From: Tubulanus polymorphus
Lineage: Eukaryota > Animalia > Nemertea
Reading direction: 5' to 3'
Assembly: GCF_964204645.1 (NCBI RefSeq)
Contig: NC_134029.1
Span: 15,370,950-15,434,949, forward strand
Length of the DNA: 64,000 nt
The position numbers and the translations under genes were made by a program. The notes under the pieces are model-generated. The model was not told where the DNA came from and searched no databases. It saw nothing but the letters and a program-made list of their open reading frames with translations. Below are positions 2,991 through 64,000 of this stretch, in pieces. Position 1 is the stretch's first letter; each line of letters starts with the position of its first letter.

Positions 2991-3044
2991 GAGGATTAAA
3001 ACAGAATTTTAATTCAATTTATTTTATATATTTTAACTATAAAA

Positions 3045-3350
3045 ATGAGTGAAAATAAGGTATTAGAAATATTACACCTAATATATAAAAATCAACAGAA
3101 TATTAAATCAATTATTATGCTTTCAGGTTTATTTTCTTTTTTAATTTACTCATTGAAACAGTTGTTAGAATTCAATGATAAATGCAAAATTAGATACGCT
3201 GAACTAAAAGAAAATATAAATTATCTATCAGATCGAATAAATAATATTAAGTGTTGTGAAGTATGTAGTAAAAGGTATAAAAATTTAAAGAGTTTGAGGA
3301 ATCATAAATATATTCACGAGCTTAACAATAAACTGTATAATTCAAATTAA
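3045..3350 (+). CDS. Small C2H2 zinc-finger protein of segment A (101 aa)
   Basis: CEVCSKRYKNLKSLRNHKYIH C2H2 motif after a hydrophobic stretch. Confidence 0.5.
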   Translation: MSENKVLEILHLIYKNQQNIKSIIMLSGLFSFLIYSLKQLLEFNDKCKIRYAELKENINYLSDRINNIKCCEVCSKRYKNLKSLRNHKYIHELNNKLYNSN

Positions 3351-22730: not shown

Positions 22731-24207
22731 AGATCAATTTTTGAGGAATACTAAATGCTGGAGAATTCTGTTTATTCCCGAACCACTTTGTCCAATGCAG
22801 CCTTTTTGAAAGAAAATCGAATAATTCAGATTTCGATCTTAATGTTTTTGCGTCTGAATACTTCACTGTATTGTTTTAATGATATCGAGTGAATAGTGAA
22901 TAGACTGAATTAGACTTTAGGCTAGTCCTGACCAAATCCTATCATTGTGATAATGGTACCAGTTATAGTAACATCAGTTTAGGGCCGACGTGAGGGAAAA
23001 AGTTGTGTTTGTAGTGCGTAGGCAGGGTAGGCTTATCGTACTCACTTAGCACTTAAGTTGTACGTGACTGTACGGTGATTTCCACAGGTTAACCGTATGT
23101 GAGAACGTTGAGCCTCTGCCTTGCAATATTGGGATTCGAAACCAAATGAAAAAAGAGTAGTCCAGCAGTAGTCCAGTGATTTACCCACTGAGCCACAGAA
23201 CGTAACTGCAGAATGAGGAAAGTTGATTGACAGATAGCCTCACCTAACCCAAACCCTATTCTTTCACGCATGCGTGTATGTAGATTATAGGAACTCACGT
23301 ACGGCGTTTGTAGGGATGTCACGTACGGTTGATCTGTGGAGATTACCGTACAGTCACGTACGGGTAACATCTTCGTACTTAAAATGGTATTGGCTACATT
23401 AATAGGCCCATAGACAAAAATATACCGGTAGGATTTCTTAGCTTCCACACTTCACAGCCGAAACAACGGACCAACCAGTAAGTCCGGATACGCACCAACC
23501 AGCACAGGCCTAACACTGGTTGTCAACTGTGTGTTCCGTAGTAGGCTATCGTAATACTTTTCTGTCGTTTATTTTCTCTCTGCGTCGAACTCAATTCTAG
23601 TGGCCACCCGCGACTCAACGACGCTTTTGGTTACATGAACAGATCAGCAATATACTTACATGAAATAAACGGAACAAGAAATCATGTATATAAAAGAGTT
23701 AACAAAGAAATTCCCATAAACCTGTTGGACTCGCAAACGCCAGACTCGTAAACTCTTGGACACTGACCCGTTGAGCAATAAATTCATAAAATTGACTTTT
23801 GAATTGATTGTCGAGAAGAGAAATTTGTCAAAATTCCCATGCAGTACCTGGAGAGTGAAGTGAGCCGAAGGATATCATATGGATTACACTGGTAACAGCG
23901 GTAAAAGGAAGCCTTTGCACTTTAAACAAAAACTGTTTTGAATAGGGGGGGGGGATAATAATGACCACGCGAATCTCAATAGAGTTTTCCGAAAGTAAAC
24001 AGAAAACCGTAATTATCAGGCTCCAAAACAGATCGCTAATGCAAACGACAATAACATGACTTCAAATAATCAGAAGCACGCTCGAATTTATTTTTCTACT
24101 CACTCGACCTCTCAACCTTTAGCCTGAACCCCTATTATCCCTATTACTCTTAAAATATTAATCTAATAACTTCTAAAATCAATTTTAATAAAAAATATGT
24201 TATTAAA

Positions 24208-24564
24208 ATGGAGAGTAGTAAACAAATACACAGTGAGAACAACAAATCATTTCTAGATAGAATAAAAGATATCACAAATATAAAATCTGTAGATTATAAA
24301 TTTAAGAATTTAAATGAACTAACAATTCATAAGAAATATTTAATTACAAATATTGATACAGTTACTAACAAATATGGAGATAAATTAGTTATTCACTTAG
24401 AATATGAAGGATTGAAAGGAAATACATATAAATTCAGAAGATATTTACCAGATAGATTTCATAGATTATCAAGTGAAGATTTAGAAGAATTATGTTCAAG
24501 TGATTTCTATTTCATATATAAGGGTAAGAATGAAAAAGGGCACCATGAAATAGATTTCGAATAA
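24208..24564 (+). CDS. 118 aa intact ORF resembling small Polinton/virus-associated (possibly ssDNA-binding) proteins
   Basis: Pattern K.L.EL....KY.I......T.KYG..L.I.L....F..YLP.RF, recalled from small proteins of Polinton-like elements. Not database verified. Confidence 0.55.
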   Translation: MESSKQIHSENNKSFLDRIKDITNIKSVDYKFKNLNELTIHKKYLITNIDTVTNKYGDKLVIHLEYEGLKGNTYKFRRYLPDRFHRLSSEDLEELCSSDFYFIYKGKNEKGHHEIDFE

Positions 24565-29484: not shown

Positions 29485-30383
29485 GTAACCGTTGAAAAAA
29501 TACCATTCTTAAAATATTATGATATTATGTATATTCAGGGTTTTCTGAGGTCGAGAGGGCGAGCTCCACTTAAATTCTCTACCTCTGACTTCAAATCATA
29601 ATATCCCTATTACTTTTTTCCATGGAAATATAGATCAATTGAAAAATGATTGCAATTTTTAGTTTAAAACGTGCTAGAAAGATAAACAAGTTTTAAAATA
29701 TATGAAAAATGTTTAAGTAAAATCATTTAGGTCTTTTAACTGAAAATATAGAAAAGTAGTAAAATAATTAAGTTTTATCTAAACGTAACAAGTAATTAAC
29801 CAGTTGTTAATAGTAGATTTTTGAAAACATTGAAAAATAATAAAATAATCTATATTACTTAAAATAACAAGCACATGAGTTGATAAAGAATAGATTTTTG
29901 AATAGATTTTTTTTCAAAAAAAAATAGTAAAATAGTTAAAAATGATAAAAGGCGATGAGTAAATGATAAGGAAAATAGTGAAAAATAAGCTTAATCATCA
30001 AATGATATTGCGTGTAAATATTGCATCGATTATTCCGGTGCGTTGTCCGATACTTGGTATCCCTGCGGGAATACACGGTTACAATTGCTAGTGAATTCAA
30101 GAAATTCCGCGTTATTTGTCTTCAAACGGCAGAAGTTTTGCAAAAGGGCAACACTGAATAAAAACAGTGATCCGCTGGAAGGCGCAGTCAATCACTGAAT
30201 TACTCTATCACTTGAATTTCCTTTCAACTCTGTCTCCGTAAAGTACTTTTGGTTCCACGTGCATTTATCTAATCACTGCTCCGAACAAACGCCTATAATA
30301 AATAACTGTTCATGTTTTTCCGTGATAGAAATCAAGTTCCGTAAATTGGAGTATTTCAAATTAAATCGTGTGTTTGTTTTTAG

Positions 30384-30506
30384 ATATTGACGAATGCGCT
30401 GTACAAAACGGTGGATGTTCACACAGCTGTGTTAACAGTCCAGGCTCATTTTTATGTGAATGTCGACACGGATTTAAGTTAATGCCAGATAGAAGAAGAT
30501 GCACAG
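30384..30506 (+). CDS. FBN: Fibrillin exon: cbEGF (FBN1 cbEGF15-like)
   Basis: 123 nt, ttttag/gtatat. [41 protein letters not shown], with the NGGC and LMPD.R.CT hallmarks. Confidence 0.96.
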
Positions 30507-32219
30507 GTATATGACATATGATCCTATATTCTTCCTAGATACGCCCTAGGTCCAGAGACCCTAGATACACCCTAGTATTTTGATCCATATATGTTATCCA
30601 AGATGCGTTACAGTCATATTGAAACCTTTTTATATATTACCAAAGATGGCCGCCACAGTCATATTGAAACTATTTTTATGCCTCGGCTCAACATTAGTTG
30701 AGAGAGGAGCATACAGATTTACCCATGTCTGAATACGCCGCCGCCGTGCTAAACGATTGTTTCAAACTTGGTTCACAAGTAGGATATCACTTGAGCCAGA
30801 ACCCTATTTGAAATAGGTTCGATTCGATTCAAATTATGGCCAGCAGGGCCAATATGAAAAACGACTTCAACTGCCTAGAGGCCGCAATTGGTGACCGATT
30901 CATTTCAGACTTGGTTCACAAGTAGGTTCCCATTTGGGCCAGAACCCTATTTGAAACTGGGTTGATTCGATTCAAATTCTGGCGACCAATGGGCCGCCAT
31001 AAAAAAAAAACGTCAACAGTCGACGAATTCTTGAGTGTATATATCCATGTTTACTTTTTTCAGCCGGGTGTATACATTCTGTTTCTAGAGACATCCTTCA
31101 AAGACCCTTTCTAAATCCACCTTTCTTAAAACTCTATATCTGTCTTTTTATATGGTTTTAACCTTACATCTGTAGTGACATGTGAAAGCTGTTTTACTTC
31201 TACTTAGCCTGGCGTCATAACTTGTGATGTAGTCATTGGTCACAGCATTCCACCGGACATAGAACTATAACCGAACGGGAAGGCCGACTCCATGACGTCA
31301 CTATGCATTTGCCTTTGCCATATTCGAAATTGATCAGCGCCCTCACCGGTCGCGATAAATAATAGATTTCGGAAATGTTTTCGATAATATTTTCTCTGCG
31401 AGAATTGAACATTACCGTTTTTTCAAGATTAGGTTTTAAGACTGAAATAAATCAATGAAAAACGCTCAATTAAGAGGCGCATTTGTTTGAAACCGGTTTG
31501 TATAAACCACTTTATATCGGTTTATTGCGTGACAAACCAGTTTGCCGTTGAGTGAACAAATTCGACAGAACGAAAAGTAGGTTTGAGTCAGCCGACCGCG
31601 GAAATTTCCTCATTCGGTCGTGTTGGAAAAGTAAAAAATATCTGTTTTAAAAAGCCAATCAGAAAGCAAATACTACCCTATGATCGGCTAAGCCGTAGAT
31701 TTGGTTTTTTGGAGGAATATTTTTATTTGCACTCCAGAAAATATCATTGGCAATTATGCATAAAGTCAGGGAAAAATAGCCTTTTCTCAAATCGCATGAT
31801 TGACATTGATATGCTAATAAGACATGTGCTCAAACTGCAAATTTAATCTAATTTTATTCTGCAAAAACTAACAAATCTCAAGGAACATAATCTTCCGATT
31901 TTCATCGGAAATTTTCTGGTCGGGTTCTGAGATCTGTGTATCTTCGTTGAGAAAATAGGGAGTGGGGGTAGGTAGTGGGTCTATCTTGCCGTGGACATCG
32001 ACGACTCAATCAGACCGTAAAAGCGCCTTGGAGTATTGTTTTGTTAATCTCCGGTATATTGACCTATAGCCTTAAGAGTACTATAAATAGTACAGCATGT
32101 CGCGTTCTTAGATTATGTAATCGACAGAAAATTGATACATGCGGTAGCGTTGTCTATATCTGAGTTCTTGACTGCAGTGAAGCATAAACAACATGGATTC
32201 AAAGATCGTTGATAAAGGA

Positions 32220-32830: not shown

Positions 32831-34384
32831 AATGTGGGTTTCAGATCAGAGGTCGTGAGGTCAACACACCACTCGCCACCACAAGTTTTTTTTCTAATAA
32901 ATGGGAGATAGAAAAGTTTTCGTAGCAACAACAAATAACAGAATAAAGCCAGCAAAAAACAATTTGAAATAAAAAAGTTAGTCGATGTTACAAAAGAAAT
33001 TGAACAAAAAATATAGCTGCGTAGCAGCGATAACGGGTTTTCTTCAAATTCATTCTTGATGATGGTAATGGTAGTAAATTGAAATACCAAAAATAGCATT
33101 TACAGATTCGAATTTCCTAATATGCAATCACTGTGTAAAATGTCAAAGGTGATAACCTTCATTCAATTAATATGAATTTATGCGATCTCATCTTAGGCAC
33201 CTATCGAGTCGATAGATTGAGTAGATTTATAGATAAGAATGTATTATGATTTGGAATAGATCTAAGTTAATATGCTAAAAAATTCTGAATAGATTTTGTC
33301 TGGGTTTCTACTCGTAAAATTACTAATAAATATATTGAGTCATGTTTGGGTTCGAAGACAAGAGTATTAGATAGAAGAGATATAACTGATATTTTGGGCC
33401 GACCTGCGTGTCGTGAGTGTTGGATGGATATCATAGTGTTAAGGCCGACCTGAAGATAGTCTAAGAAAGGGATGAACAAAATAAATATCCACATCACATC
33501 GAATCGAATGCATAGTATTTACGTTCTTTTCGTCGTCTGGAGTATTTAAAGAGACTTTTGACACAGGACTCTTCAGTTTTCCATAGTCTCCATACGGTAT
33601 GAATGGGTCGATCAGTAGAAAATCGAAGGTTTCGGTTGATTGTGGAATCGCCTAATCGCCTAAGGTTTGTGAAGTATTCGTTTCACTGTCGCTATAGTGC
33701 ACACTATAGCTAAGGCTTGTGAAGTAATAAACCGATGCAAGGTGATTTATGCAAATTGATTTTAAATGAATGAGTCAATTGTAGAGGAATATCATCTATC
33801 TTTTCCAAAATGCTAATATTTGCAATAATCATTTGAGAAAAAATCCAAAATGAAAATGAAAAAAAGGAATATTTAGATGACTTTTACTATGAATAGTTAT
33901 TTATTCCGGTTATGTATTAGTAGACATTGACTTTCACCCACCATGGCACATTCAAATACATGTATTGGAATCATTGATGATCAGGACTAGAAAATTGAGA
34001 TTCATATCAGTGATGATTATAGATTTCCAGGAGAAAGAATGATTAGTCACGTTCATAATATGATCACTAGTTGTCATCAAAAATATATATAAGAATTCCT
34101 GAAGGAGGATAATGTAACTACTTGCCATCATTCATTTATTAAATACGCATGATAATTGACTTTTTAAATCCCTTACCTCCTGTACGAAAAATTGCCATTT
34201 TAACATACTTTAAGTGTTACAGAACTTAATTGTACAATGTATTACCTTTTCCCCTTTCGTTAATGCGTATGTAATAAATGAATGGTCCGTTAATTTAAAG
34301 TCAATATAAGTGACTTAAATAGGGCCTTGGTTATAAGTACCTATAATATATAAAAGGTAACTTTGATGCAGTTACTGTTCAAAA

Positions 34385-34530
34385 AGATTCTTTCACAAGT
34401 GTACAACACATCTGTTGGTAGATTAAACTGCAGAGCAGGCATGTCAGTTTCCAAGTTCGTATGATATTTGAGATGTTTACATTGATAATAACAGTGTGAT
34501 CTTCATTGTTGATATCAGTAAATGTGACGC
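34385..34530 (-). pseudogene. Third, degenerate copy of OB-fold gene exon 4
   Basis: Clear nucleotide similarity to 40130-40265 (tcacaagtgtaca...aaactgcagagc...atgatatttgaga...aacagtgtgatc), with indels. Confidence 0.7.
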
Positions 34531-35417: not shown

Positions 35418-38400
35418 TTATTAATCAGTCAAATCAATTTCTGTGATCTTGTCTCCTTCACAAGTGTACATGATGTCTCGTGGTAAATCAAACTGTAGAG
35501 CTAAGATGTCAGCTTCTAACTTGGTATGATATTTGAGAAGTTTCTAATCAATAATAACAGTGTGATCCTCATTGTCGATATTGGTTAATGTGTCACAGAT
35601 GTCTTTGCAATTTTCAACCTATTAAAACAAAATTTGAAAAGATAAATTTCAAACATATATACATATGATTACAAAATAATGATTGTAATTTACTTAGAAT
35701 TTATTCTATAATTACGGTTTTATTTATGAGATGTTTGTTTTGCCACTACGACAATGAGAAGTCAGTGGTAGAGACATATGTATAAGACATGTCTATTAAT
35801 TAAATCTAGCATTGACATTAATTCAAATTAATGTAGGAAGTGTAAAGGTTGTTGGTGTTATGGTGGATGGTAAGAAGTGGTATGACGAGAGCAATTTACG
35901 TACTGTAGATATGAAATGTGTATTAGGTAGTATAGAATAGCATGAATGACTGTTAACGTACCTTCTCCACATTTGTCGAAACATGAGCTACTCTCATTTA
36001 TATTATAGAAATACTTCATAGTCGTCGCAGGATTGTTATTAACAGTTGGATGTGACGGTTTATTTTGAAAGGCCTGACTCATTACTCATTGGCTAAAATA
36101 GCTATTTGCATTTCTCTTGTAGAATTAAGTGGGAATAAGACAAGGGATACTTAGGAACGTACCTTTTCCACATTTGCAGTAACACTAATACGTCGTCTTT
36201 TAGGAGTTGACAAAGCATCTAAGACCGAACAAATAGGTGGATTCTTAATACTGTCTATTCGAACGTGCTCAACTTTGAACTTTGAGCTATAAAAAATCTG
36301 TAAGCAGAATTTTAAATGTAATATATTAGAAACAATGATCAAACATTTCAATACCTGTAAATTGATTAAGACACACATAATTTTCACAAATTTGATCAAC
36401 TTTGAGCATTGCAATAGTAGCCATTCATTTTTATTATATCTCCATGAGGGGAAGAAGATCATGGTTATAATGTAGGCTTAGTAACTGTTCTAGTAGAGGG
36501 GGTTTTTAACATACCGAGTGTTATATTGTTAAGTCCTGTGTGTCCTAGATTATTTGCATATTGATGAAATTAGGAAGTGGTTATTTTGCTGGATGCAGTC
36601 ATTGACTCTTAAACGATAGGGTTTATTTTGGTGGATATCATCTCTGATTGCCTGATTTATTTTATGTATGTGCAAAGAGGTGCATGACTTTGAAAATTAA
36701 ATATCTAAATTTCGAAAAATGGCGTGCACTGGGTGGGTTGGGTCACATTTGGGGGTCCAATGCAAAATGACAGTGGAGATTACTATACCCATTGTTAAAA
36801 TCTCTGTTATACTTCTCATTACAATCTGAATGTCTGACTCTTCATCCAAATCCCAAAATATCAAATAAATGTGGCATTTTATGACAATATTTTGATGGTT
36901 ACAGATGAGTAACTTCACAAATGTAGATATCAATGATGATGGATTTCGAATGACTGGATAATGCAATGTACGATTAAAAGTTATGTACAAGTAAGGCAAT
37001 TAATAGATTTATTTATCTCTTGGCACGAAACAGTTAATATAATATTTGAAAAAGTAGGATGAATGTTTACTTTACCTCTAATCTTGGAGTAATTATCACT
37101 CCAAGCTCTAAAGTAGTGGTAGGAGTAGACTGTATTTCCGTTTTGTTATTATAGATATTTACTTCCATGCGCTTGACTGTAACTCTAGACCCAGCACTTA
37201 CTTCAATACCATTCCAAAATTTTGCGACTAATTTATTGTTGTTGTCATCAGATAGATGAACATCGGTTCTCTTACCAAGGCTCTGAATTACCTTAATAAA
37301 AATTGAAAATAAATATTACAATACAGTTAAAACTTCCCTAGGACCAAGTGACTTTGTGAAAAAAGAATTATTGCTAAATTGTCAAGATAAAATATAAGAT
37401 AATGGATTTGAATGTACATGTGTAGATATGGAGTATGGATATGGCTGGAGTTTAACTGATAAAGGTTTTAAAATGGATTATATTAGAAAGTATTTACAGA
37501 AATTTTGGATCTGTAGTTTGATCACCATTCTAGATGTCAGGCATAAATAGTTATTCTAATGAAGTGGATATTTAACTGTATACGGTAAAGTATTTACTTT
37601 CACTTTTTTACTGTACATTGTATTACTATATATCATAGTATTAACTAATAAAAGTAACAATAAAATGATTTTATTGGGTTAAGGTTTTGATAGGGTTAGT
37701 GTGGAGAGGGTGAGAAGAGGGTTCTTTTTACCCCTAGGGATCGGATTAGGGTAAGGGGACGTACTGTAGATAGCTAAAACATTCGGGTGGATTTTAATGA
37801 GCTCGGTGGTCTAGTGCTATGACGGTCATCCTTATTACTGAGATGACGTATTTTACCGAGATGACATGAAATATAACATATTTATTTATTCCTTATCGGT
37901 TTAACACTTGAAATGTTATTATATCAGTAAGAAATGCCTGCTGGAGTCATATTTTGTTGGATATTTCTGTTGAAAAATAACTTAACTTTACCGAGATGAG
38001 ATCATTGATCAATCAAATTTAATGAAATTTTATTGCTAACCGAGATTACGTATTCGAAGTCCACATTTTTGAAACCAAATATCGGGAAAAATATGACTCT
38101 AGAAAGGTATTTATAATATTACTGATATAACATGATATCAAGTGTTAAAATTGATAAGGAATAAACAATTATGCTATATTTCATGCCATCTCGGTTCATT
38201 TTGGTAAATTCACTGGTCCGGGTTCGAGTCTCGCTCGATCAGCTCTATTTTTTTCTAACCCTATTCTTGACACTCTCCTTGAATTTTCTAAGTTCGCACA
38301 CCTCTGTGCGCATGTGCAGTGTAATTCAGCCAAGCAGTAATGATCTAGAGTAAAATAGTGGAAATAAACACTCAGACTGCGTTATAAAGCATGAAAACAA

Positions 38401-38580
38401 ACCTTAGCAAAAGTTCCCACAGTGATATTGAAGATGTCGTCTTCTTCCTTCGCTTTGTGTCCCTTTATTTTGATATAGTTACCGGTTGACAATTTAGCAG
38501 CAACAGCCTCTCCGATTTTATAAGAGTAAATGTCAGTACGTTTAATGCTGGCAGTTATGCCGAGGGCATAAAGAAATTCG
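35418..38580 (-). pseudogene. Rearranged second copy of the OB-fold gene (order E1-E3-E2-E4)
   Basis: E1' 38580-38403 (5' truncated), E3' 37291-37076 (30 nt insertion), E2' 36297-36163, E4' 35618-35418 with an in-frame TAG. Confidence 0.8.
37856..38195. mobile_element. MITE inserted into a tRNA-like SINE head
   Basis: TIRs accgagatgacatgaaatata / tatatttcatgccatctcggt. A-box-like gctcggtggtctagtg upstream and B-box ggttcgagtctc downstream. Confidence 0.65.
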
Positions 38581-40089
38581 TTACTATGTAGATGTAGTAT
38601 GCTGAATGCATATACAAAAAAATCACAATATATGTGATTTATTCAAATTTAGCAGAAACAGTCTCTCCAACTTTACAACGGTAAATATTTATAGTTGTAG
38701 GGTATTTTAAAAACACGTGTACGGTACCTGGCTGAATGAACGTCTGTCAGTCATTGCATTGGTGTCGTGAGCGAAAAAAGAGAAGAACCACTACACTGTA
38801 CGTTGTCGTTTTTACGACACTACGTCGTCGTTAATATTATTCTGCCGTTCGCTAGTTCGGACATACTGCATGGTAGCAGTCATGGCGAGTGTGGATAGAA
38901 AGGAATGTCTACATTTTGTGTTCGTTTTTCCTCGATTCCAATACGTGTACCTGAACGTGTGGCGTGGTGGGTGAAAGTGAACGAGTTTGGTTGAGGTAAT
39001 GGGAACCCCGTTTATCCTCACTTGCCACTTAAACATTTCTTACAAGTCAATGTCAATTTAATTATATTCACGAGGAAGGATTGAATATCCAAGTCATTTG
39101 TACAGTTACATTAAGTATATAAAATTAAATTTTAACATTTATCAAATGATAATTATCAATGTATCTATCCAAATAAAAATGTAGAAGTACCGTATAGTAG
39201 GATAGATTACGGTTGAAAAGTGACTCAAGGTGTGGTTTACTCGTTTGCTGGTTGATATAGACTGGTTGGCGGATTTCAAACTTAAGGCGAAGTTATTTTG
39301 TAAAATGCGAATAAATTTTCCTAGTTGAATTAAAAAATTATACCAATAGAAATTTGATTATGTCAGGATGACTCCGAATTTACTTGAAAGGAAATTTAAT
39401 CTGACATAATTCGACTCTTCTATTCACTGAACTTTCGTTTGTAGACCAAGTTTCTGAATGACAATCGTCTTTGCTTGCCAGGGGTTACTTTGATCATGTC
39501 CGAAAAGTTACAGTTTAGTGTTGGGTGCGAACGCACTACCCCACGTGATCCCTAGTTCCACTTGCTTTGTCTAAGCAAATTTTCAACGACTCTGTTATAT
39601 GCAATATTGTCTAACCAATATTGTGTAATAGTTAGAAATCGGGAACTAGAATGCTTAAAATATTCTAAATTTTCTTTGCAGAACACCCCAGGGGGCTTTG
39701 CACCGACAGTGCTCACAATCTCCAGTTCCACCATCAAATAAGTTCCACTCCATCTAAATTCGCACTCACTTAAAAGAAAGGCTGTGTGTGGGCCTGGTAT
39801 GTACCTGGGTATAAAAGGGTAGGGTGTACTGTTGGCAAGGATTTTTAACCAATTTGATTATCCCTAGGATTGATTAAATTGAAAAGACGTGATATGGGTA
39901 TGAAGCAGAATAAACAATATGTAACAAAATTGAAATATATTAATGATAATAGTATAACATTTATTGTGCATGGCTTTTACCATATAAACAATTTGACAAA
40001 AATAAGAATATGTATCATAGATACTAAGTCTATTGACTCTAACCAACTTTTGAGCAACTGGCCCCAGAAAAGTGAGGTATTTGGTGCAG

Positions 40090-40290
40090 TTATAATTGAG
40101 TCAAATCAATTTCTGTGATCATGTCTCCTTCACAAGTGTACATGACGTCTCGTGGTAAATCAAACTGTAGAGCTAAGATGTCAGCTTCTAACTTTGTATG
40201 ATATTTGAGAAGTTTCTTATCAATGATAACAGTGTGATCCTCATCGTCGATATCAGTTAATGTGCCATGGTTGTCTTTGCATTTTTCAAC
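40090..40290 (-). CDS. Nested OB-fold gene, exon 4 (66 aa + stop)
   Basis: TTTATAG acceptor. VEKCKDNHGTLTDIDDEDHTVIIDKKLLKYHTKLEADILALQFDLPRDVMYTCEGDMITEIDLTQL*. AATAAA on the minus strand at 39960-39965. Confidence 0.75.
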   Translation of the reverse strand, partial: VEKCKDNHGTLTDIDDEDHTVIIDKKLLKYHTKLEADILALQFDLPRDVMYTCEGDMITEIDLTQL

Positions 40291-41029
40291 CTATAAACAT
40301 AAAATTTGAAAAGATAAATGTTAAAAATATATATATCTGATTAGAAAATACTGATAGTAATGTATATAGAATTTATTTTATAACTTAGGTTTTATTTATG
40401 GGATGTTTGTTTTTCCACTAAAACAATGAAGCCACTGGTAGAGACATATGTACAAGACATGTCTATTAATGAAATCTAGCAATGACATTAATTCTAATTA
40501 AATTCGGAAGTGTAAAGGTTGTTGGGGTTATGGTGGACAGTAAGAGGTGGTATAACGAGAGATGTTGACATACTGTAGATATGAAATGTGTACTAGGTAG
40601 TATAGAATAGCATGGATGACTGTTAACAATTGGATAGTTAATTGATATCTGTCATAAATTCTACTATAAGTACAATATCTTGACGGTTACAGATGAGTAA
40701 CATCTGTAATGTAGATTCAATTGACTGAAAAATGCAATGTACAATTATATTGTAGATACATATACGTAAAGTAATTCACACTAGCTATGTAAATAGATTG
40801 ATTTTAAAATAGGGATCATTTATTTATTACGTACGCATTAGGGGAGGGGGAGGGGTCAGTGTAATTGTGTACTGTAATGCTTAATGTATACCGAAAAATT
40901 TGTGTAGGCCTACAGAGGGAGAGGGATGGTTGAACAATTCAAATTTTATGTGTTCGTAATTAAAGAATGATCCCGTGTATAATATTTAATAAAATAGGAT
41001 AGAAGAAATATGATGAATGTTTACTTTAC

Positions 41030-41215
41030 CTCTAATGTAGTGGTAGGAGTAGACTGTATTTCCGTTTTGTTATTATAGATATTTACTTCCATGCGCTTGA
41101 CTGTAACTCTAGACCCAGCACTTACTTCAATACCATTCCAAAATTTTGCGACTAATTTATTATTGTTGTCATCAGATAGATGAACATCGGTTCGCTTACC
41201 AGGGCTCTGAATTAC
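41030..41215 (-). CDS. Nested OB-fold gene, exon 3 (62 aa)
   Basis: TTTTTATCAAG acceptor and GTAAAG donor. VIQSPGKRTDVHLSDDNNNKLVAKFWNGIEVSAGSRVTVKRMEVNIYNNKTEIQSTPTTTLE has an RPA-type OB pattern (L.D....L...FW, G..V.V, I.ST..T.L). Confidence 0.8.
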
Positions 41216-41506
41216 CTTGATAAAAATTGAAAATAAATGTCACCATACAATTAAAACAGGTCCTAGCACCAAGTGACTTTGTGAAAAAAGAATTATTGCT
41301 AAATTGTTAGGATAAAATATAAGATAATGGATTTGAATGTACATGTTTACATATGGAGTAAGGATTTGGCTGTAGTTCAATCAGTAGTAGCAATAGTAAG
41401 AAGTTCAGTTATGACAGTACCTATTAGTTTATGTACAAGTAGAAGAGTAAAAGCAATATTGGTTAAAATAGCCATATTAAGCGGGAATAAGACGAGGGAT
41501 ACCTAC

Positions 41507-41641
41507 CTTTTCGACTTTTGCCGAAACACTAATACGTCGTCTTTTAGGAGCTGACAAAGCATCTAAGACCGAACAAATAGGTGGATTCATAATACTGTCT
41601 ATTCGATCCTGCTCAACTTTGAACTTTGAGCTATAAAAAAT
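41507..41641 (-). CDS. Nested OB-fold gene, exon 2 (45 aa)
   Basis: TTCTGCTTACAG acceptor and GTAGGT donor. IFYSSKFKVEQDRIDSIMNPPICSVLDALSAPKRRRISVSAKVEK. Confidence 0.8.
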
Positions 41642-42598
41642 CTGTAAGCAGAATTTTAAACTTAAGATATACGAAAAAATGATCAAAAATTTTAATACGC
41701 ATAAATTGATTTAGATACCCAGGATTTTCGCAAATTGGATCAATTATGAGCATTGCAATAGTGGCCATTCATTTTTATTATACCTCCATGACGGGAATAA
41801 GATCATTGTTATAATGTAGGCCTAGTAACTGTTCTAGTAGAGGGGGTTTTTAACATACCGAATGTTTTATTGTTAAGTCCTGTGTGTCCTAGATAATTTG
41901 CATATTGATGAAATTAGGAAGTGGTTATTTTGCTGGATACAGTCACTGATTCTTATTAGGGCCTATTTTAGTGGATATCATCTGTAATTGACTGATTTAT
42001 TTTACGCATGTACAAAGAGGTGCATGACTTCGAAAATTAAACATCTAAATTTGGAAAAATGGGGTGCACTGGGTGGGTTGGGTTACATTTGGGGGTCCAA
42101 TGCAAAAATACCGCTCCTGTCCTATCGTTCATGTCAAAGTCGAAATACTTACAGTGACTGACACAATATCGTGTAAGATTGTCGATATTCAAATAAAGAC
42201 ACTGGAGATTACTCTACCCATCGTTAAAATCTTTTTTTTACTACTCATTACAGTCTAAATGTCTGCCTCCTCATCCAAATCCCAAAATATCAAATTAACG
42301 GGGTATTTTTGTGCACAAAATTCTATAATATAAAAATGAGTAACTATTTCCGGGTTTGGATTCTTGAGTATCGGCAGTCACTGTGCGTTAAGAACTACGT
42401 GTCAACGCGTTGCGAGCCACTTGAAACATAAAAAGCAAACTTAAATTGCCAAATTGGTCGGGCTGTCAAAAACAGTAACATATTCGATAGTTCTTCGGTA
42501 TTTTAACAATAGTCGCCTATGACAAATTACGGGTATTAGCGTAAATGTTACTTTTAACCATTTTACGGTTATCGTAGGCCTATGTTATAAAAACAAAC

Positions 42599-42838
42599 CT
42601 TAGCAGAAGTTCCTACAGTGATATTGAAGATGTCGTCTTCTTCCTTCGCTTTGTGTCCCTTTATTTTGATATAGTTACCGGCTGTCAATTTTGCAGAAAC
42701 AGCCTCTCCGATTTTATAACAGTAAATGTCAGCACGTTTATTGCTGGCAGTTATGCCGAGGGCATAAAGAAATTCTTCACCACGTTTCGTGGTTCTCTTC
42801 GTAGAATTTTCCAACACGTGTACTTGCATGTCAGCCAT
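42599..42838 (-). CDS. Nested OB-fold gene, exon 1 (80 aa)
   Basis: ATG at 42838. MADMQVHVLENSTK...FNITVGTSAK followed by a GTTTGT donor (phase 0). A paralogous copy at 38403-38580 keeps the same donor. Confidence 0.8.
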
Positions 42839-42843
42839 AATGA

Positions 42844-42879
42844 GAAGTGAATACCGGATTGAGGGATGCGCAATTTATA
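42844..42879 (-). promoter_or_regulatory. TATA box plus Initiator of the nested gene
   Basis: Minus-strand TATAAA (42879-42874) lies 31 nt upstream of the A in an Inr-like TCACTTC (42850-42844). That A is 10 nt before the ATG. Confidence 0.6.
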
Positions 42880-45800: not shown

Positions 45801-46159
45801 CAATAAAGATAGATCCTTTTATTCAATTTTACCAGAGTTGTTTATTGGAGGAAAATATCATTGTTAAGTACGCCGAGAACAACCATGTTGTATCATCAAT
45901 CAGTTGACTGACATTGTAAAATTCGATTCGGCTATATTCTAATATAAGTTTTCATTTTAGGACGCCCTACCCGCCTGCTGCGCACTCATAAGGCGGTAGC
46001 ACCCTCTTACGCACTCGGCAGAGATTCGCTTTGTAATGCGTGCCGGGAAAAAATACCTTTTATTATCTTTTCCATGTGTTAAACAACAGTGATTGAATTT
46101 ACACGTTGTTTGTCGTAAATTGCAATATTGCGATGGTTATTTGCCGCTGCTGTAGTTTT

Positions 46160-46639
46160 TTGGGTCTTAGGTTTAGTATATTATATATAGGTGTCACTAA
46201 ACCTAAGGCCCATAAACCTAAGACCCGACTCTAAATCGTTATCTGTGTACTTTAGACTATTCAAAATGGTTCTAATATATAGATATTAGTTAAAATGATC
46301 CATCGATGGCCTATTTGAATTTTATTTATTTATCAGAGACGAGATATTTGAGGGTCTTAGGTTTATGGGTCTTAGGTTTAGTATATTATATATAGGTGTC
46401 ACTAAACTTAAGGCCCATAAACCTAAGACCCGACTCTAAATCCATATTTGTGTACTTTAGACTATTCAAAATGGTTCTAATATATAGATATTAGTTAAAA
46501 TGATCCATCGATGGCCTATTTAAAGTTTGTTTATTTATCAGAGACGAGATATTTGGGGGTCACTAAAGGTGTGACTAAACCTAAGACCCCCTTAACATAA
46601 GACCTAACGGGTCTTAGGTCTTAGGTTTAGTGACACCCC
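46160..46639. mobile_element. MITE-like element with internal ~200 bp duplication
   Basis: Repeated gggtcttaggtttagt / actaaacctaagaccc inverted motifs; gggtgtcactaaacct-type terminus ends ggtttagtgacaccc. Confidence 0.6.
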
Positions 46640-50195: not shown

Positions 50196-50506
50196 ATTCC
50201 TACTCATTTCAAGTGTAATGAATTAAAAAGTCGGAAGTTCTACGTTTAAAAATAACCCGTGGTTTCCACGGGCTTTCCACTAGTAATAACGAATACACGT
50301 AGTCATATTTCTTCCCAACATACGCCCATCGTGTAAGGTCTCATGTCAAGTACATCCTTATTCAAAAATATTTGTCATATAATTGAACCTCGTTACCATA
50401 ACATAATTAACTGGTAAATTTGCATTAGTCGTATCAAGATAGTAGATAACATGAAATATAAGATGAAGAAGTTGACTTATGTTCGTGTTCTATTACATCC
50501 AACTAG

Positions 50507-50632
50507 ATATGGATGAGTGTTCCCAGAATCCATCGGTCTGTGGCGGTGGAAAGTGTAAGAATGAAATTGGATCATACGGTTGCATCTGCCAGAATGGTTG
50601 GATTCTCTCAGAAAATCGGAAATCATGTACAG
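50507..50632 (+). CDS. FBN: Fibrillin exon: cbEGF (FBN1 cbEGF16-like)
   Basis: 126 nt, aactag/gttagt. DMDECSQNPSVCGGGKCKNEIGSYGCICQNGWILSENRKSCT. Confidence 0.94.
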
Positions 50633-50779
50633 GTTAGTTTACCTTTATCTTACTTCATGAGAGTGATAACCCATTATGTTTTCAGATCGGAGTACCCGTA
50701 CATTTTATTAAGTAAATGTTTTGCTATATAAACGGAAGAAAAAACCTTATTATCAGTAAATATTGATATAGTAAAACCA

Positions 50780-51389: not shown

Positions 51390-52380
51390 CAATTGTCACG
51401 GGCGACAAAACAAAAATAATGAATTGTCGCGGGCAATAAAACCAAAATAATGAATTGTCTCGGGCGACGAAACCAAAATAATGAATTGTCGCGGGCGATA
51501 AAACGAAAATATTGAATTGTCGCGGGCGATAAAACCAAAATAATGAATTGTCGCGACGACAAAACCAAAATATTAAATTGTCGCGGGCGACAAAACCAAA
51601 AAAAAAAATTGTCGCGGGCGACAAAAACAAAATGTAAAACCAAAATAATGAATGGTCGCGGGCATCAAAACCAAAAAGAAGAATTGTCGCCGGCGATAAA
51701 ACCAAAATATTGAATTGTCGCGGGCAACAAAACCAAACTAATGAATCGTCGCGGGCGATAAAACCAAACTAATGAATTCTCGCGGGCGATAAAACCAAAC
51801 TAATGAATTGTCGCGGGCGATTAAACAAAAATATTGAATTGTCGCGGGCGATTAAACCAAAATAATGAATTGTCTCGGGCGATAGAACCAAAATATTGAA
51901 TTGTCGCGGGCGATAAAACCAAAATAATGAATTATCTCGGGCGATAAAACCAAAATATTGAATTGTCGCGGGCAACAAAACCAAAATATTGAATTGTCGC
52001 GGGCGACAAAACCAAAAAAAAATTTCGTAGGCGACAAAAACAAAGTATAAAACCAAATTAATGAATTGTCGCAGGCGTCAAAACCAAAAACAAGAATTGT
52101 CGCGGGCGACAAAACCAAAATAATGAATTGTCGCTGGAGATAAAACCAAAGTAATGACTTGTCGTGGGCGATAAAACCAAAATATTGAATCGTCGCGGGC
52201 GACAAAACCAAACTAATGAATGGTCTCGGGCGACAAAACCAAAATAATGAATTGTCGCGGGCGATAAAAACGAAATATTGTCGCGGGCGATAAAACCAAA
52301 ATAATGAATTATCGCGGGCGATAAAACCAAAATATTGAATTGTCGCGGGCGATAAAACCAAAATAATGAATTGTCGCGGA
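51390..52380. repeat. 31-bp satellite block 1
   Basis: Unit AATTGTCGCGGGCGA(T/C)AAAACCAAAATA(A/T)TG. Confidence 0.97.
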
Positions 52381-52687: not shown

Positions 52688-55642
52688 TCATGATGAGGAG
52701 AAACTCGCAGCTGATCCCCGGAACGACGATGTAGTAACACACGTCGATTCGTCGATGTTTACGGCTCGACAGTGCTTTTAAAATCTAAAGTAGTAAATCT
52801 CCAGTGTATCGGTAATATGATTTGATGAGGAAAATGGGCTATTGTTAAAATCACTGTTTGAAGACCGCGACTGAATGTGAAGTCTGCGGCAATAAATTAG
52901 TTCATTTATACTTGAATTGATAATCGAAGTGACAGTCGGCCTGCGGGTTGATTTCGGGATGACGACTCGAAAAACATGTCGCCCCATTGAATGGGGCTAA
53001 ATTTTCGATGTTTACGGCCCGACAGCGCTTTTGTAACGATGATTCGTGAAAAAACACGCGGGCTATTTGTAGATCTCAGTGAGCTGAACGATATTATATG
53101 GATTGTATATGAAACAGCGGTAAGGTAACAAAGCCTATGTTCTTTTGGTAAAAATAGTGTGGAAGAAAATAATAATAAATATAGCTGCAAAGCAGCGATA
53201 ACGGGTTTTCTGCACAGTCTTAGAATCCTGTTCAACGGGGGATTTCAACAGAGCATTTGATAAGGCTAAACATCAGCCATTACTAAACAGGCTATTAGGA
53301 AACAGTATCAATGATAGGTCGCCCAAATGGCTCAGCAGTTATCTCTGAACGGAAACTTGTAACCGAAATCAACGGAACGCCTCATCTTGGAATGAGACGG
53401 TCTAACTAGTGGAGTCACTCAAGGTAGTATCCTAACTCGTCTTCTGTTTAATGTCCTGACAAATGACATACACAGTAATCCAAAATATACCAGACCGAGT
53501 AAATTTCCAAAACAACCTTAACACACTGTTCGACCAAAAAACTTAATGTTCCGACAAAACCACGGGCGACAAAACCAAAATTATGAAAACCAAATTAATT
53601 AATTGTCGCGGGCGACAAAACCAAAAAGAAGAATTGTCGCGGGCGACAAAACGAAAATAATGAATTGTCGCTGGAGATAAAACCAAAGTAATGAATTGTC
53701 ATGGGCGATAAAATCAAAATATTGAATTGTCGCCGAGCGACAAAACCAAACTAATGAATGGTCGCGGGCGATAAAACCAAAATAATGAATTATCGCGGGC
53801 GATAAAACCAAAATATTGAATTGTCGCGGGCGATAAAACCAAAATAATGAATTATCGCGGGCGACAAAACCAAAATATTGAATTGTCGCGGGCGACAAAA
53901 CCAAAATATTGAATTGTCGCGGGCGACAAAACCAAACTAATGAATTGTCGCGGGCGACAAAACCAAAAAAAGAATTGTCGGGGCGACAAAACCAAAATAA
54001 TGAAATGTCGCGGGCGATAAAACCAAAGTATTGAATTGTCACGTGTGACAAAACCAAAATAATGAATTGTCGCGGGCGACAAAATCAAAATAATGAATTG
54101 TCGCGGGCGATAAAACCAAAATAATGAATTGTCTCGGGCGACAAAACCAAAATAATGAATTATCGCGGGCGATAAAACCAAAATATTGAATTGTCGCGGG
54201 CGACAAAACCAAAATAATGAATTGTCGCGGGCGACAAAATCAAAATCATTGTTTTCTCGCGTTATTTTAGTTTTGTCGTTTTGTCGTAATGTCGCCCTAA
54301 TTTGCATATTCGTGTTTTTTTTATCAGCCACCATACTAAAGCCTTAAGGTCGCGTAAAACTCGATAACCACTTCAAGCGACACAGCGAACGATCTCCTTT
54401 CCCCCACAGCGAACGCTTACTCCGAATGTCAAGTGTGAGTCCAGCATACGGATAGGAGTGTGTTATATACTTGTATTTAGTAAATACCTTGTGCATTTGA
54501 CAATGATCGGTATGTACTGTAGGAAATATAGAGTATTGATAAATGGTTGAAGCCCGCGGCCGAATAAAGTAATATATTCTTTTATTTTGATACCTCGTCG
54601 ACATAACAGCTTTTCTCCGCTATATCTCTTCGGCCTGTTTAGTTTAGGCCTACGATTCCCCGGTACACTAAAGATTTATCTTAGTAAATACACGGTTAAT
54701 TCGGTAAAGAAAAATAGGTATTGTTATACTAACTCCTTGAAACCCGCAGCCAAATCACTGGTAGTAATAAATTAATTTGTACTCGATTTGATTCTCATGA
54801 TGAGGAGAAACTCGCAGCCCATCCCCGGAACGTCGATGTAGTAACACACGTCGTTTACGGCTCGACAGTGCTTTTAAAAGTAGTAAATTTCCAGTGTATC
54901 GGTAATATGATTTGATGAGGAAAATGGACTATTGTTAAAATCACTGTTTGAAGACCGTGACTGAATGTAAAGTCTGCGGCAATAAATTAGTTCATTTATA
55001 CTTGAATTGATAATCGAAGTGACAGTCGGCCTGCGGGTTGATATCGGGATGACGACTCGAAAAACATGTCGCCCCATTGAATGGGTCTAAATTTTCGATG
55101 TTTACGGCCCGACAGCGCTTTTGTAACGATGATTCGTGAAAAAACACGCGGGCTATTTGTAGATCTCAGTGAGCTGAACGATATTATATGGATTGTATAT
55201 GAAACAGCGGTAAGGTAACAAAGCCTATGTTCTTTTGGTAAAAATAGTGTGGAAGAAAATAATAATAGATATAGCTGCAAAGCAGCGATAACGGGTTTTC
55301 TGCACAGTCTTAGAATCCTGTTCAACGGTGGATTTCGACGAAGCATTTGATAAGGCACAACATCAGCCATTACTAAACAGGCTATTAGGAAACAGTATCA
55401 ATGATAGGTCGCCCAAATGGCTCAGCAGCTATCTCTGAACGAAAACTTGTAGCCGAAATCAACGGAACGCCTCATCTTGGAATAAGTCGGTCAAACTAGT
55501 GGAGTCACGCAAGGTAGTATCCTAAGTTGTGTTCTGTTTAATGTCCTGACAAATGACATACACACTAATCCAACATATCCCAGACCGAGTAAATTTCCAA
55601 ATCGACCTTAACACGCTGTTCGACCAAAAAACTTAATGTTCC
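52688..55642 (+). repeat. ~850 bp segment duplicated (52688-53550 and 54796-55642), containing a LINE RT fragment
   Basis: tcatgatgaggagaaactcgcagc begins both copies. DF..AFDK..H..LL..L....I......WLSSYL...SGVTQGSIL...LFNV..NDI at ~53240-53480 and ~55330-55570. Confidence 0.85.
53562..54245. repeat. 31-bp satellite block 2
   Basis: Same unit as block 1. Confidence 0.97.
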
Positions 55643-57259: not shown

Positions 57260-60200
57260 GGGCGACAAAACCAAAAAAATTAATTGTCGCGGGCGATAAA
57301 ACCAAAATAATCATTTGTCGCTGGCGATAAAACCAAAATATTGAATTGTCGCGGGCGACAAAACCAAAAAAAAATGAATTGTCGCGGGCGATAAAACCAA
57401 AATAATGAATTGTCGCGGGCGATAAAACCAAAATAATGAATTGTCGCGTGCGACAAAACCAAAATAATGAATTGTCGCGTGCGACAAAACCAAACTAATG
57501 AATTGTCGCGGGTGATAAAACCAAAATAATGAATTGTCGCGTGCGACAAAACCAAAATAATGAATTGTCGCGTGCGACAAAACCAAACTAATGAATTGTC
57601 GCGGGTGATAAAACCAAAATAATGAATTGTCGCTGGTGATAAAACCAAAATATTGAATTGTCGCAGGCGATAAAACCAAAATATTGAATTGTCGCAGGCG
57701 ATAAAACCAAAATATTGAATTGTCGCGTGGACAAAACCAAAATTTTGAATTGTCGCGGGCGACAAAACCAAACTAATGAATTGTTGCAGGCGATAAAACC
57801 AAAATAATGAATTGTCGTGGGCGATAAAACCAAAATAATGAAATGTTGCTGGTGATAAAACCAAAATATTGAATTGTCGCGGACGATAAAACCAAAATAA
57901 TGAATTGTCGCGGGCGATAAAACCAAAATAATGAATTGTCGCGTGCGACAAAACCAAAATAATGAATTGTCGCGGGCGATAAAACCAAAATAATAAATTG
58001 TCCCGGGCGACAAAACCAAAATATTGAATTGTTGCGGGCGACAAAACCAAACTAATGAATTGTTGCGGGCGATAAAACCAAAATAATGAATTGTCGCGGG
58101 CTATAAAACCAAAATAATGAATTGTCGCGTGCGACAACACCAAAATAATGAATTGTCGCGGGCGATAAAACCAAAATAATGAATTGTCGCGGGCGACAAA
58201 ACCAAAATAATGTATTGTCGCAGGCAATAAAACCAAAATAATGAATTGTCGCTGGTGATAAAACCAAAATATTCAATTGTCGCAGGCGATAAAACCAAAA
58301 TATTGAATTGTCGCAGCCGATAAAACCGCGACATAAAAAAAATTGTCGCAGGCGATAAAACCAAAATAATGAATTGTCGCGGGCGATAAAACCAAAATAA
58401 TGAATTGTCGCGGGCGACAAAACCAAAATAATGTATTGTCGCGGGCGATAAAACCAAAATAATGAATTGTCGCTGGTGATAAAACCAAAATATTGAATTG
58501 GCGCAGGCGATAAAACCAAAATATTGAAGTGTCGTAGGCGATAAAACCGCGACAAAAAAAAAAATTGTTGCAGGCGATAAAACCAAAATAATGAATTGTC
58601 GCGTGCTACAAAACCAAAATAATGAACTGTCGCGGGCGATTAAACCAAAATAATGAATTGTCGCGGGCGATAAAACCAAAATAATGAAATGTCCCGGGCG
58701 ACAAAACCAAAATATTGAATTGTTGCGGGCGACAAAACCAAACTAATGAATTGTTGCGGGCGATAAAACCAAAATAATGAATTGTCACTGGCGATAAAAC
58801 CAAAATATTGAATTGTCGCAGGCTATAAAACCGCGACAAAAAAAAATTGTCGCGGGCGATAAAACCAAAATAATGAATTGTGGCGTGCGACAACACCAAA
58901 ATAATGAATTGTCGCGGGCGATAAAACCAAAATAATGAATTGTCGCGGGCGATAAAACCAAAATAATGAATTGTCCTGGGCGACAAAACCAAAATATTGA
59001 ATTGTTGCGGGCGATAAAACCAAAATAATGAATTGTCGCGTGCGACAACACCAAAATAATGAATTGTCGCGGGCGATAAAACCAAAATAATGAATTGTCG
59101 CGGGCGACAAAACCAAAATAATGTATTGTCGCAGGCAATAAAACCAAAATAATGAATTGTCGCTGGTGATAAAACCAAAATATTGAATTGTCGCAGGCGA
59201 TAAAACCAAAATATTGAAGTGTCGTAGGCGATAAAACCGCGACAAAAAAAAAATTGTCGCAGGCGATAAAACCAAAATAATGAATTGTCGCGTGCTACAA
59301 AACCAAAATAATGAAATGACGCGGGCGATAAAACCAAAATAATGAATTGTCACGGGCGATGAAACCAAAATAATGAATTGTCGCGGGCGACAAAACCAAA
59401 ATAATGTATTGTCGCGGGCGATAAAACCAAAATAATGAATTGTCGCTGGTGATAAAACCAAAATATTGAATTGTCGCAGGCGATAAAACCAAAATATTGA
59501 AGTGTATTAATATTGAAGCGATAAAACCGCGACAAAAAAAAAAATTGTTGCAGGCGATAATACCAAAATAATGAATTGTCGCGTGCTACAAAACCAAAAT
59601 AATGAACTGTCGCGGGCGATTAAACCAAAATAATGAATTGTCGCGGGCGATAAAACCAAAATAATGAAATGTCCCGGGCGACAAAACCAAAATATTGAAT
59701 TGTTGCGGGCGACAAAACCAAACTAATGAATTGTTGCGGGCGATAAACCCAAAATAATGAATTGTCACTGGCGATAAAACCAAAATATTGAATTGTCGCG
59801 GGCTATAAAACCGCGACAAAAAAAATTGTCGCGGGCGATAAAACAAAAATAATGAATTGTCGCGTGCGACAACACCAAAATAATGAATTGTCGCGGGCGA
59901 TAAAACCAAAATAATGAATTGTCGCGGGCGATAAAACCAAAATAATGAATTGTCCTGGGCGACAAAACCAAAATATTGAATTGTTGCGGGCGATAAAACC
60001 AAACTAATGAATTGTTGCGGGCGATAAAACGAAAATAATGAATTGTCGCGGGCGATAAAACCAAAATAATGAATTGTCGCGGGCGACAAAACCAAAATAA
60101 TGTATTGTCGCAGGCAATAAAACCAAAATAATGAATTGTCGCTGGTGATAAAACCAAAATATTGAATTGTCGCAGGCGATAAAACCAAAATATTGAAGTG

Positions 60201-63200: not shown

Positions 63201-64000
63201 ATTAAACCAAAATAATGAATTGTCGCGGGCGATAAAACCAAAATAATGAAATGTCCCGGGCGACAAAACCAAAATATTGAATTGTTGCGGGCGACAAAAC
63301 CAAACTAATGAATTGTTGCGGGCGATAAAACCAAAATAATGAATTGTCACTGGCGATAAAACCAAAATATTGAATTGTCGCAGGCTATAAAACCGCGACA
63401 AAAAAAAATTGTCGCGGGCGATAAAACCAAAATAATGAATTGTCGCGTGCGACAACACCAAAATAATGAATTGTCGCGGGCGATAAAACCAAAATAATGA
63501 ATTGTCGCTGGTGATAAAACCAAAATATTGAATTGTCGCAGGCGATAAAACCAAAATATTGAAGTGTCGTAGGCGATAAAACCGCGACAAAAAAAAATTG
63601 TCGCAGGCGATAAAACCAAAATAATGAATTGTCGCGTGCTACAAAACCAAAATAATGAAATGACGCGGACGATAAAACCAAAATAATGAATTGTCACGGG
63701 CGATAAAACCAAAATAATGAATTGACCCGGGCGACAAAACCAAAATATTGAATTGTCGCGGGCGACAAAACCAAAATAATGTATTGTCGCGGGCGATAAA
63801 ACCAAAATAATGAATTGTCGCTGGTGATAAAACCAAAATATTGAATTGTCGCAGGCGATAAAACCAAAATATTGAAGTGTCGTAGGCGATAAAACCGTGA
63901 CAAAAAAAAAAATTGTTGCAGGCGATAAAACCAAAATAATGAATTGTCGCGTGCTACAAAACCAAAATAATGAACTGTCGCGGGCGATTAAACCAAAATA
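57260..64000. repeat. 31-bp satellite array (over 6.7 kb, runs off the window) with higher-order repeats
   Basis: Same unit; diagnostic variants recur at ~1446 bp spacing. Confidence 0.98.

Follow-up and report, generated by a model that had tools for sequence, protein, structure and literature searches.

The stretch of DNA that we analysed (the window) comprises 64,000 nucleotides of contig NC_134029.1 of the nemertean Tubulanus polymorphus and contains a small gene on its minus strand, LOC141905245. According to the RefSeq model, exon 1 (42599..42838, 240 nt) encodes residues 1-80 and with them most of a predicted first OB fold (OB1). Exon 2 (41507..41641, 135 nt) adds residues 81-125, which comprise the end of OB1, a linker of two helices, the basic motif PKRRR and the first strand of a second fold (OB2). 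The core of OB2, including W151 and Y172, is encoded by exon 3 (41030..41215, 186 nt, residues 126-187), while residues 188-253 and the stop codon in exon 4 (40090..40290, 201 nt) correspond to a minimal, acidic third barrel (OB3). The introns measure 957, 291 and 739 nt, all are GT..AG and phase 0, and the joined exons form an open frame of 253 aa (P0001). This frame is letter for letter identical to XP_074650160.1, an uncharacterised T. polymorphus protein retrieved by a protein search with exon 1 as query. The four minus-strand exons with phase-0 introns and 253 codons that a first-pass annotation had proposed were thus borne out at the same coordinates. The TATA box, initiator and polyadenylation signal noted there are likewise present on the minus strand, as sequence matches only: TATAAA (42874..42879) lies 31 nt ahead of the A of the putative initiator TCACTT (42850-42845), and a putative AATAAA signal is found at 39960..39965.

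Stop-free minus-strand stretches of 45-80 codons account for 1-7% of positions in the surrounding intron. Four of them that can be joined in frame to give a single homologous protein with a good predicted fold are therefore not a product of chance. Junction-spanning sequence, of the kind that the first-pass annotation had proposed to look for in RNA, was found for two of the three junctions: in contigs of the public run X4, exon 2 is joined exactly to exon 3 and exon 3 to exon 4, so that the introns of 291 nt (intron 2) and 739 nt (intron 3) are missing. Both joints read CT..AC on the plus strand, with short sides of 39 and 49 letters, and they are specific to this gene since a neighbouring copy has a different exon order. 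No exon 1-exon 2 junction was seen in the contigs of four public runs (X1-X4), and the contigs of X1-X3 contained no intron-skipping joints at LOC141905245. None of these runs carries a library label, and X4 was taken as RNA only from its intron-skipping joints. One contig of X1 lacks 68 nt within 40191-40260 and has 5 different letters in their place (net 63 nt), which affects residues ~198-220 of the third barrel; another contig has four changes in this part that occur in neither local copy. These variant contigs could represent an allele or a further paralogue.

The opposite strand carries exons of a host gene. A TB domain exon at 5.05 kb has fibrillin-1 as its best solved match (E 1.8e-7; LTBP1 1e-4), and six calcium-binding EGF exons are located at 7.3, 7.9, 27.2, 29.3, 30.4 and 50.5 kb. 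The EGF exons at 30383..30508 and 50506..50634 (both plus strand, ends approximate) flank LOC141905245, and no host-type exons were found between 30.5 and 50.5 kb. LOC141905245 is therefore likely nested within a single fibrillin-type intron of 20 kb, where we infer that the 30.4 and 50.5 kb exons share a transcript. The earlier placement of the gene antisense inside a fibrillin intron holds insofar as it sits backwards between fibrillin-type exons; the single host intron follows from the presumed shared transcript. No Rfam family was found in the host intron.

Elsewhere in the window, a 136-codon open frame (24154-24564, plus strand) lies in a 25% GC island of another host intron. It had no Pfam match and no relative in viral contigs, and our impression is that it looks like a remnant of a mobile element or virus. 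A 116-codon frame in a 22% GC island (3000-3350, plus strand) gave a weak C2H2 zinc-finger match (E 7e-4, below cut-off). A 31-bp satellite occupies 51391-52379, 53586-54246 and 57260-64000, with ~215 copies at the window end; its long stop-free minus-strand frames are due to the repeat.

Downstream of the intact gene we found a shuffled, stop-broken duplicate (LOC141904928 in RefSeq; 35424..38754, minus strand), in which a new first exon is followed by a partial exon 1, exon 3, exon 2 and exon 4. Its exon 4 has a premature stop at the codon matching residue 212; the duplicate is spliced, with two of its exon junctions present in X4 contigs. A third, decayed fragment of exon 4 (34389..34526, minus strand) is ~80% identical. 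The local amplification that had been suspected is supported. The exons of the intact and the broken copy differ at 33 of 687 sites and the aligned intron parts are 87-89% identical; unlike these, the outer flanks of the local copies have nothing in common. The proposed dN/dS comparison among copies was run on the intact/broken pair only, and its value of 0.61 is uninformative, being indistinguishable from 1 (p 0.19).

For P0001, AlphaFold2 produced a model from a 39-row alignment with a pLDDT of 90.2 and a pTM of 0.76. The model places OB1 at residues 4-83, helices at 91-98 and 105-109, OB2 at 116-188 and a third unit at 191-249, which is composed of three strands, one helix and two strands. 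An independent Atlas model reached a pLDDT of 0.82; a single-sequence fold (pLDDT 31.6) was set aside. Two OB folds with a helical linker had been read from the letters alone, and the AlphaFold2 model agrees in their positions. The same reading had seen an extra acidic C-terminal domain. Acidic it is, with a net charge of -8 and a pI of 4.5 (OB1-OB2: net +7, pI 9.3), but rather than an extra domain it is predicted to be a third, minimal OB barrel: the closest structural matches to residues 186-253 of the Atlas model are CusF/DUF1344-type small OB proteins, with TM scores of 0.70-0.79, below the bar for a family name.

Among solved structures, Foldseek ranked HIN domains first (E 1.3e-12, TM 0.45-0.49), followed by Teb1 AB (8e-11) and by BRCA2 (5e-9). 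A second structural aligner gave a Z of 14.6 for HIN (178 aligned residues, rmsd 5.8 Å), a tie with Teb1 AB (Z 14.3, rmsd 12.8), and values of 12.6 for BRCA2 and 12.6 and 11.8 for RPA70AB, on a scale where many unrelated OB folds score Z 10-12. Residues 1-189 of the model cover 188 HIN residues versus 207 residues of RPA70AB. In the Atlas, the sole named matches were HIN rows (TM 0.52-0.53), next to archaeal RPA-like rows (0.55-0.61) and an unnamed chordate cluster (0.59). The first-pass annotation had seen a likeness to both HIN and RPA70, and both were recovered: HIN by structure and RPA70 by sequence profile.

The family profile matched Sulfolobus SSB (E 3.5e-7), fungal RPA70 over both barrels (4e-4) and human RPA70 (0.03). 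At E<=10 the Pfam family REPA_OB_2 was recognised in 27 of the 39 rows, with a best value of 5.8e-8; its curated cut-off was reached in 2 of 25 hits. P0001 alone matched no Pfam family at cut-off, and its sole direct sequence match in the PDB (E 0.25) was rejected as chance. As for HIN, P0001 did not match the profile PF02760, PF02760 was absent among the 25 of 44 Pfam families listed for the 39 rows (the rest being single-row matches weaker than E 0.047), and two family profiles retrieved no HIN chains from the PDB at E<=10.

Conservation centres on OB2. W151 is kept in 37 of the 38 rows that have a residue there, position 172 is aromatic in 38 of 38, the position of R133 is basic in 37 of 37, and an S/T-P-x-K/R motif precedes OB2 in 29 of 39 rows (P0001 itself has A before PKRRR); these counts are not independent, since isoforms and near duplicates are among the rows. 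W151 and Y172 align with W56 and F79 of SSB and with the W and F of the RPA70 chains 4gnx and 1jmc. Alanine scans, as described in PMC8954794, mark W56 and F79 of SSB as important for ssDNA binding, W56 contributing less than W75 and F79. In the family alignment, SSB W75 has no aromatic counterpart, OB1 contains no conserved surface aromatic assignable to base stacking, and no cysteine is conserved.

To collect relatives, 1.84 billion representative sequences were searched with HMMER at E<=0.001. The 27 hits consisted of P0001, its neighbour, one chance hit (P0023, a 3982 aa beta-helix protein, which was dropped) and 24 relatives; the alignments excluded P0002 and P0003, which represent the local broken copy. 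The relatives are mostly 200-340 aa long and distant, with ~20-30% identity (23-39% over matched stretches). Among the 20 that we looked up, 15 clusters carried names, all of them uncharacterised proteins of marine invertebrates, and 5 had none. The named genera are Tubulanus, Lineus, Crassostrea, Saccostrea, Mytilus, Holothuria, Apostichopus, Anneissia, Patiria, Asterias, Ptychodera and Priapulus, that is, nemerteans, bivalves, echinoderms, one hemichordate and one priapulid. What had been taken for a stand-alone, locally amplified invertebrate version is thus not merely local: it is a RefSeq-modelled member of a family that extends across several invertebrate phyla. In several species the family has two or more diverged copies; those of Tubulanus are 29% identical and stand apart in the tree. 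This tree (24 rows, no HIN sequence included) cannot order events, with 4 of 21 inner branches supported; its median end branch of 1.28 changes per column indicates very fast divergence. In one Priapulus protein (P0013, 416 aa) the second half repeats the OB2-OB3 part, which shows that the module is duplicated as a unit. No relatives were found in viral contigs or prokaryote genomes, and PHROGs gave one weak match among 25 rows. Word-indexed protein searches returned nothing beyond the local copies and a single starfish protein and are uninformative on fusions. A literature search, with supplements and subscription papers outside its scope, found no description of an invertebrate HIN-like family or of its gene ids. 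What is new here is the undescribed family; what was known is an unnamed RefSeq model, and OB-fold ssDNA binders are an established kind of protein.

The intron positions also appear to be common to members across phyla, judging from proteins and one genomic exon. Fragments or isoforms of an oyster cluster, a holothurian and a crinoid diverge from the full-length protein where intron 1 lies; of four truncated predictions, three end where intron 3 would fall and one ends a codon further on. Metagenome scans gave no match with P0001 as query, and one 1.9 kb locus (L001) with the oyster cluster. The OB2 exon of this genomic fragment reads AG, 68 codons, GT, with phases 0-0, and its ends are the equivalents of introns 2 and 3 of LOC141905245. 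A broken coding-like stretch (L001:1-417) lies 650 nt upstream of the homologous exon; it has no convincing Pfam match and may resemble the end of a transposon protein.

Taken together, we favour, as the more probable reading, that P0001 is a small nuclear ssDNA-binding protein derived from the RPA70 A-B tandem; the family as a whole is likely fast-evolving, derived from RPA70AB, nuclear and ssDNA-binding. In OB2, W151 and Y172 would contact the bases and R133 and K149 the backbone, and the basic OB1 would lengthen the binding surface. The basic motif before OB2, which we take to be a nuclear import signal, would direct the protein to the nucleus, and the preceding S/T-P of most members, presumably a kinase site, could be phosphorylated. 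The acidic OB3 may bind proteins, or the basic face of P0001 itself, rather than DNA. The family turns over by duplication and decay, as is evident from the broken neighbour, and this pattern is more in keeping with an accessory function at exposed or foreign DNA than with one in core replication. With RPA70 A-B and crenarchaeal SSB the protein shares profile homology, the cleft aromatics of OB2 and the tandem arrangement (Z 11.8-12.6). It differs from RPA70 in its length (253 aa versus ~600 aa) and in lacking the 70N barrel and the zinc-binding C domain, while its family has a shorter unit, a helical linker, and multiple copies with paralogues 20-30% identical.

The residues that are conserved best belong to the nucleic-acid cleft of OB2, and this speaks against the notion that the barrels no longer bind nucleic acid and now serve as a protein-interaction module. 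Very fast divergence, the acidic, minimal OB3 and the common use of OB folds as a scaffold, reflected in the Z scores of unrelated ones, are in line with such a module; nevertheless we regard it as highly improbable.

A point against an ssDNA-binding role is that the closest solved structures of the predicted fold are HIN domains, which bind the dsDNA backbone according to PMC3458909. P0001 could be a protein that binds dsDNA irrespective of sequence in order to sense or shield foreign DNA, and that signals through a partner bound to OB3 in place of a pyrin domain. The first ranks of HIN in both structural searches, the matching length of the unit, the linker of two helices and a birth-and-death turnover as in PYHIN clusters would fit. 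However, Teb1 AB ties with HIN, the HIN superpositions reach TM scores of only 0.45-0.49 with an rmsd of 5-6 Å, HIN profiles are matched neither in Pfam nor in the PDB, and the W and Y/F of OB2 are RPA-type. In most rows OB1-OB2 carries a modest net charge, between -2 and +11. P0001 has no pyrin domain, its OB1 starting at residue 4, and no death-fold, TIR or other signalling domain was detected in P0001 or 25 further hits scanned; longer forms were looked for with exon 1 and by the family search without length limit. The nucleic-acid sensor suggested by the first-pass annotation is therefore unsupported here, though other members of the family may act as one, and we judge a HIN-like dsDNA binder improbable.

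The same annotation had considered carriage by a transposon. In its most specific form, the family would be divergent RPA-like cargo of animal Helentrons that coats the displaced strand, and LOC141905245 a stranded or domesticated remnant. The literature describes RPA-like ORFs in Helentrons, among them animal stand-alone RPA70 A-B-like proteins of ~350 aa (PMC4067079), and highly divergent RPA homologues in Helitrons of zebrafish and sea anemone (PMC4683698). Several diverged copies per genome, the patchy spread, the antisense intronic position with decayed neighbours and the high Atlas scores of unnamed chordate clusters are also what such cargo might leave behind. Yet at this locus none of 103 stop-free frames of >=48 aa in 30.5-50.5 kb matched a Helitron or other transposon protein family; Rep/Helicase is missing, and the duplicates share no outer flanks. 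Terminal repeats or a 3' hairpin-CTRR end bracketing the intact gene were not found, which is weak as evidence because the ends of an old element may have been lost to decay. Over the exons, contig depth resembles that of the flanks and not that of repeats, again a weak point as depth gives no copy number. The family introns are shared across phyla, whereas the mite Helentron RPA is intronless and matches RPA1 strongly (PMC4067079). Transposon carriage is thus unsupported at this locus, though it may apply elsewhere in the family, and we consider Helentron cargo unlikely. An imperfect inverted pair of 46-48 nt (83%; 33927-33972 and 38934-38981) encloses the shuffled copy and the exon-4 fragment, with the intact gene outside; it could mark the ends of a fold-back or gene-capturing element. 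A MITE-like region at 46153-46637, 3.3 kb upstream of LOC141905245, consists of a 205-bp tandem pair that contains palindromes, together with an inverted pair of 21 nt.

Reported sequence searches found HIN only in therian mammals, that is, marsupials and placentals (PMC3458909; PMC13253634), which bears on the origin of the DNA-binding half of AIM2 and IFI16. Like the HIN-200 domains of the PYHIN proteins AIM2, IFI16, p204 and MNDA, P0001 has a tandem OB unit with a helical linker (189 residues versus 188), and HIN is its best solved structural match. It differs in the absence of pyrin, in the added third OB fold, in keeping the RPA-type W and Y/F, in the lack of a profile-level match, in an inter-domain fit of 5-6 Å and in an extra intron at the end of OB1. 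Without a pyrin domain and a HIN profile match, P0001 is not a PYHIN member.

Gene structure adds to this comparison. The HIN alignment in supplement S3 of PMC3458909 is cut to the two HIN exons and ends in L-x-S-x-x-H-S-x-I-K. By eye, and in agreement with the structural ranges, this motif is in register with I-x-S-T-x-x-T-x-L-E at the end of exon 3, so that the 3' boundary of the second HIN exon falls at the place of intron 3 of LOC141905245. Intron 1 has no HIN counterpart. We assume that the internal HIN intron, like intron 2, follows the first strand of the second OB fold. Unit length, the helical linker and, more tentatively, gene structure tie the family to HIN more than to RPA70. Phase-0 introns at domain ends are common, and this counts against the HIN link.

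It is conceivable, if on the whole doubtful, that the family is a sister lineage of mammalian HIN, both descending from an OB1-helix-OB2 module of early bilaterians whose OB2 core was encoded by one phase 0-0 exon. Therian mammals would then have built AIM2 and IFI16 from it through loss of OB3 and of the ssDNA aromatics and gain of a pyrin domain; the module may have been delivered by a rolling-circle transposon, and unnamed chordate clusters in the Atlas (298-358 aa) might form the bridge. Against a sister relation stand the tie of Teb1 in Z and the absence of non-mammalian vertebrate members among those retrieved. The family is a candidate intermediate, with a predicted structure nearer to HIN than RPA70 is and a sequence that is still RPA-like, and it makes the origin of HIN testable by intron positions, profile comparison and a binding assay. 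Should the HIN link fail, what is left is a nucleic-acid-binding family that evolves fast, lacks a published description and occurs in oysters, mussels, echinoderms and worms.

Returning to our favoured reading as an ssDNA-binding family, further tandem OB proteins of this kind are Teb1 (the RPA70 paralogue of Tetrahymena telomerase), POT1/TEBP-alpha and BRCA2. OB-B of Teb1 superimposes on P0001 with an rmsd of 1.4 Å over 87 residues; the orientation of the Teb1 domains differs, as the AB rmsd of 12.8 indicates, and P0001 has no sign of a telomere role and no sequence match at cut-off. The top viral structural match of P0001 was the baculovirus ssDNA-binding protein LEF-3 (E 2.4e-9), with which, at a TM of ~0.3, an rmsd of ~10 Å and 8-11% identity, it has only OB folds in common.
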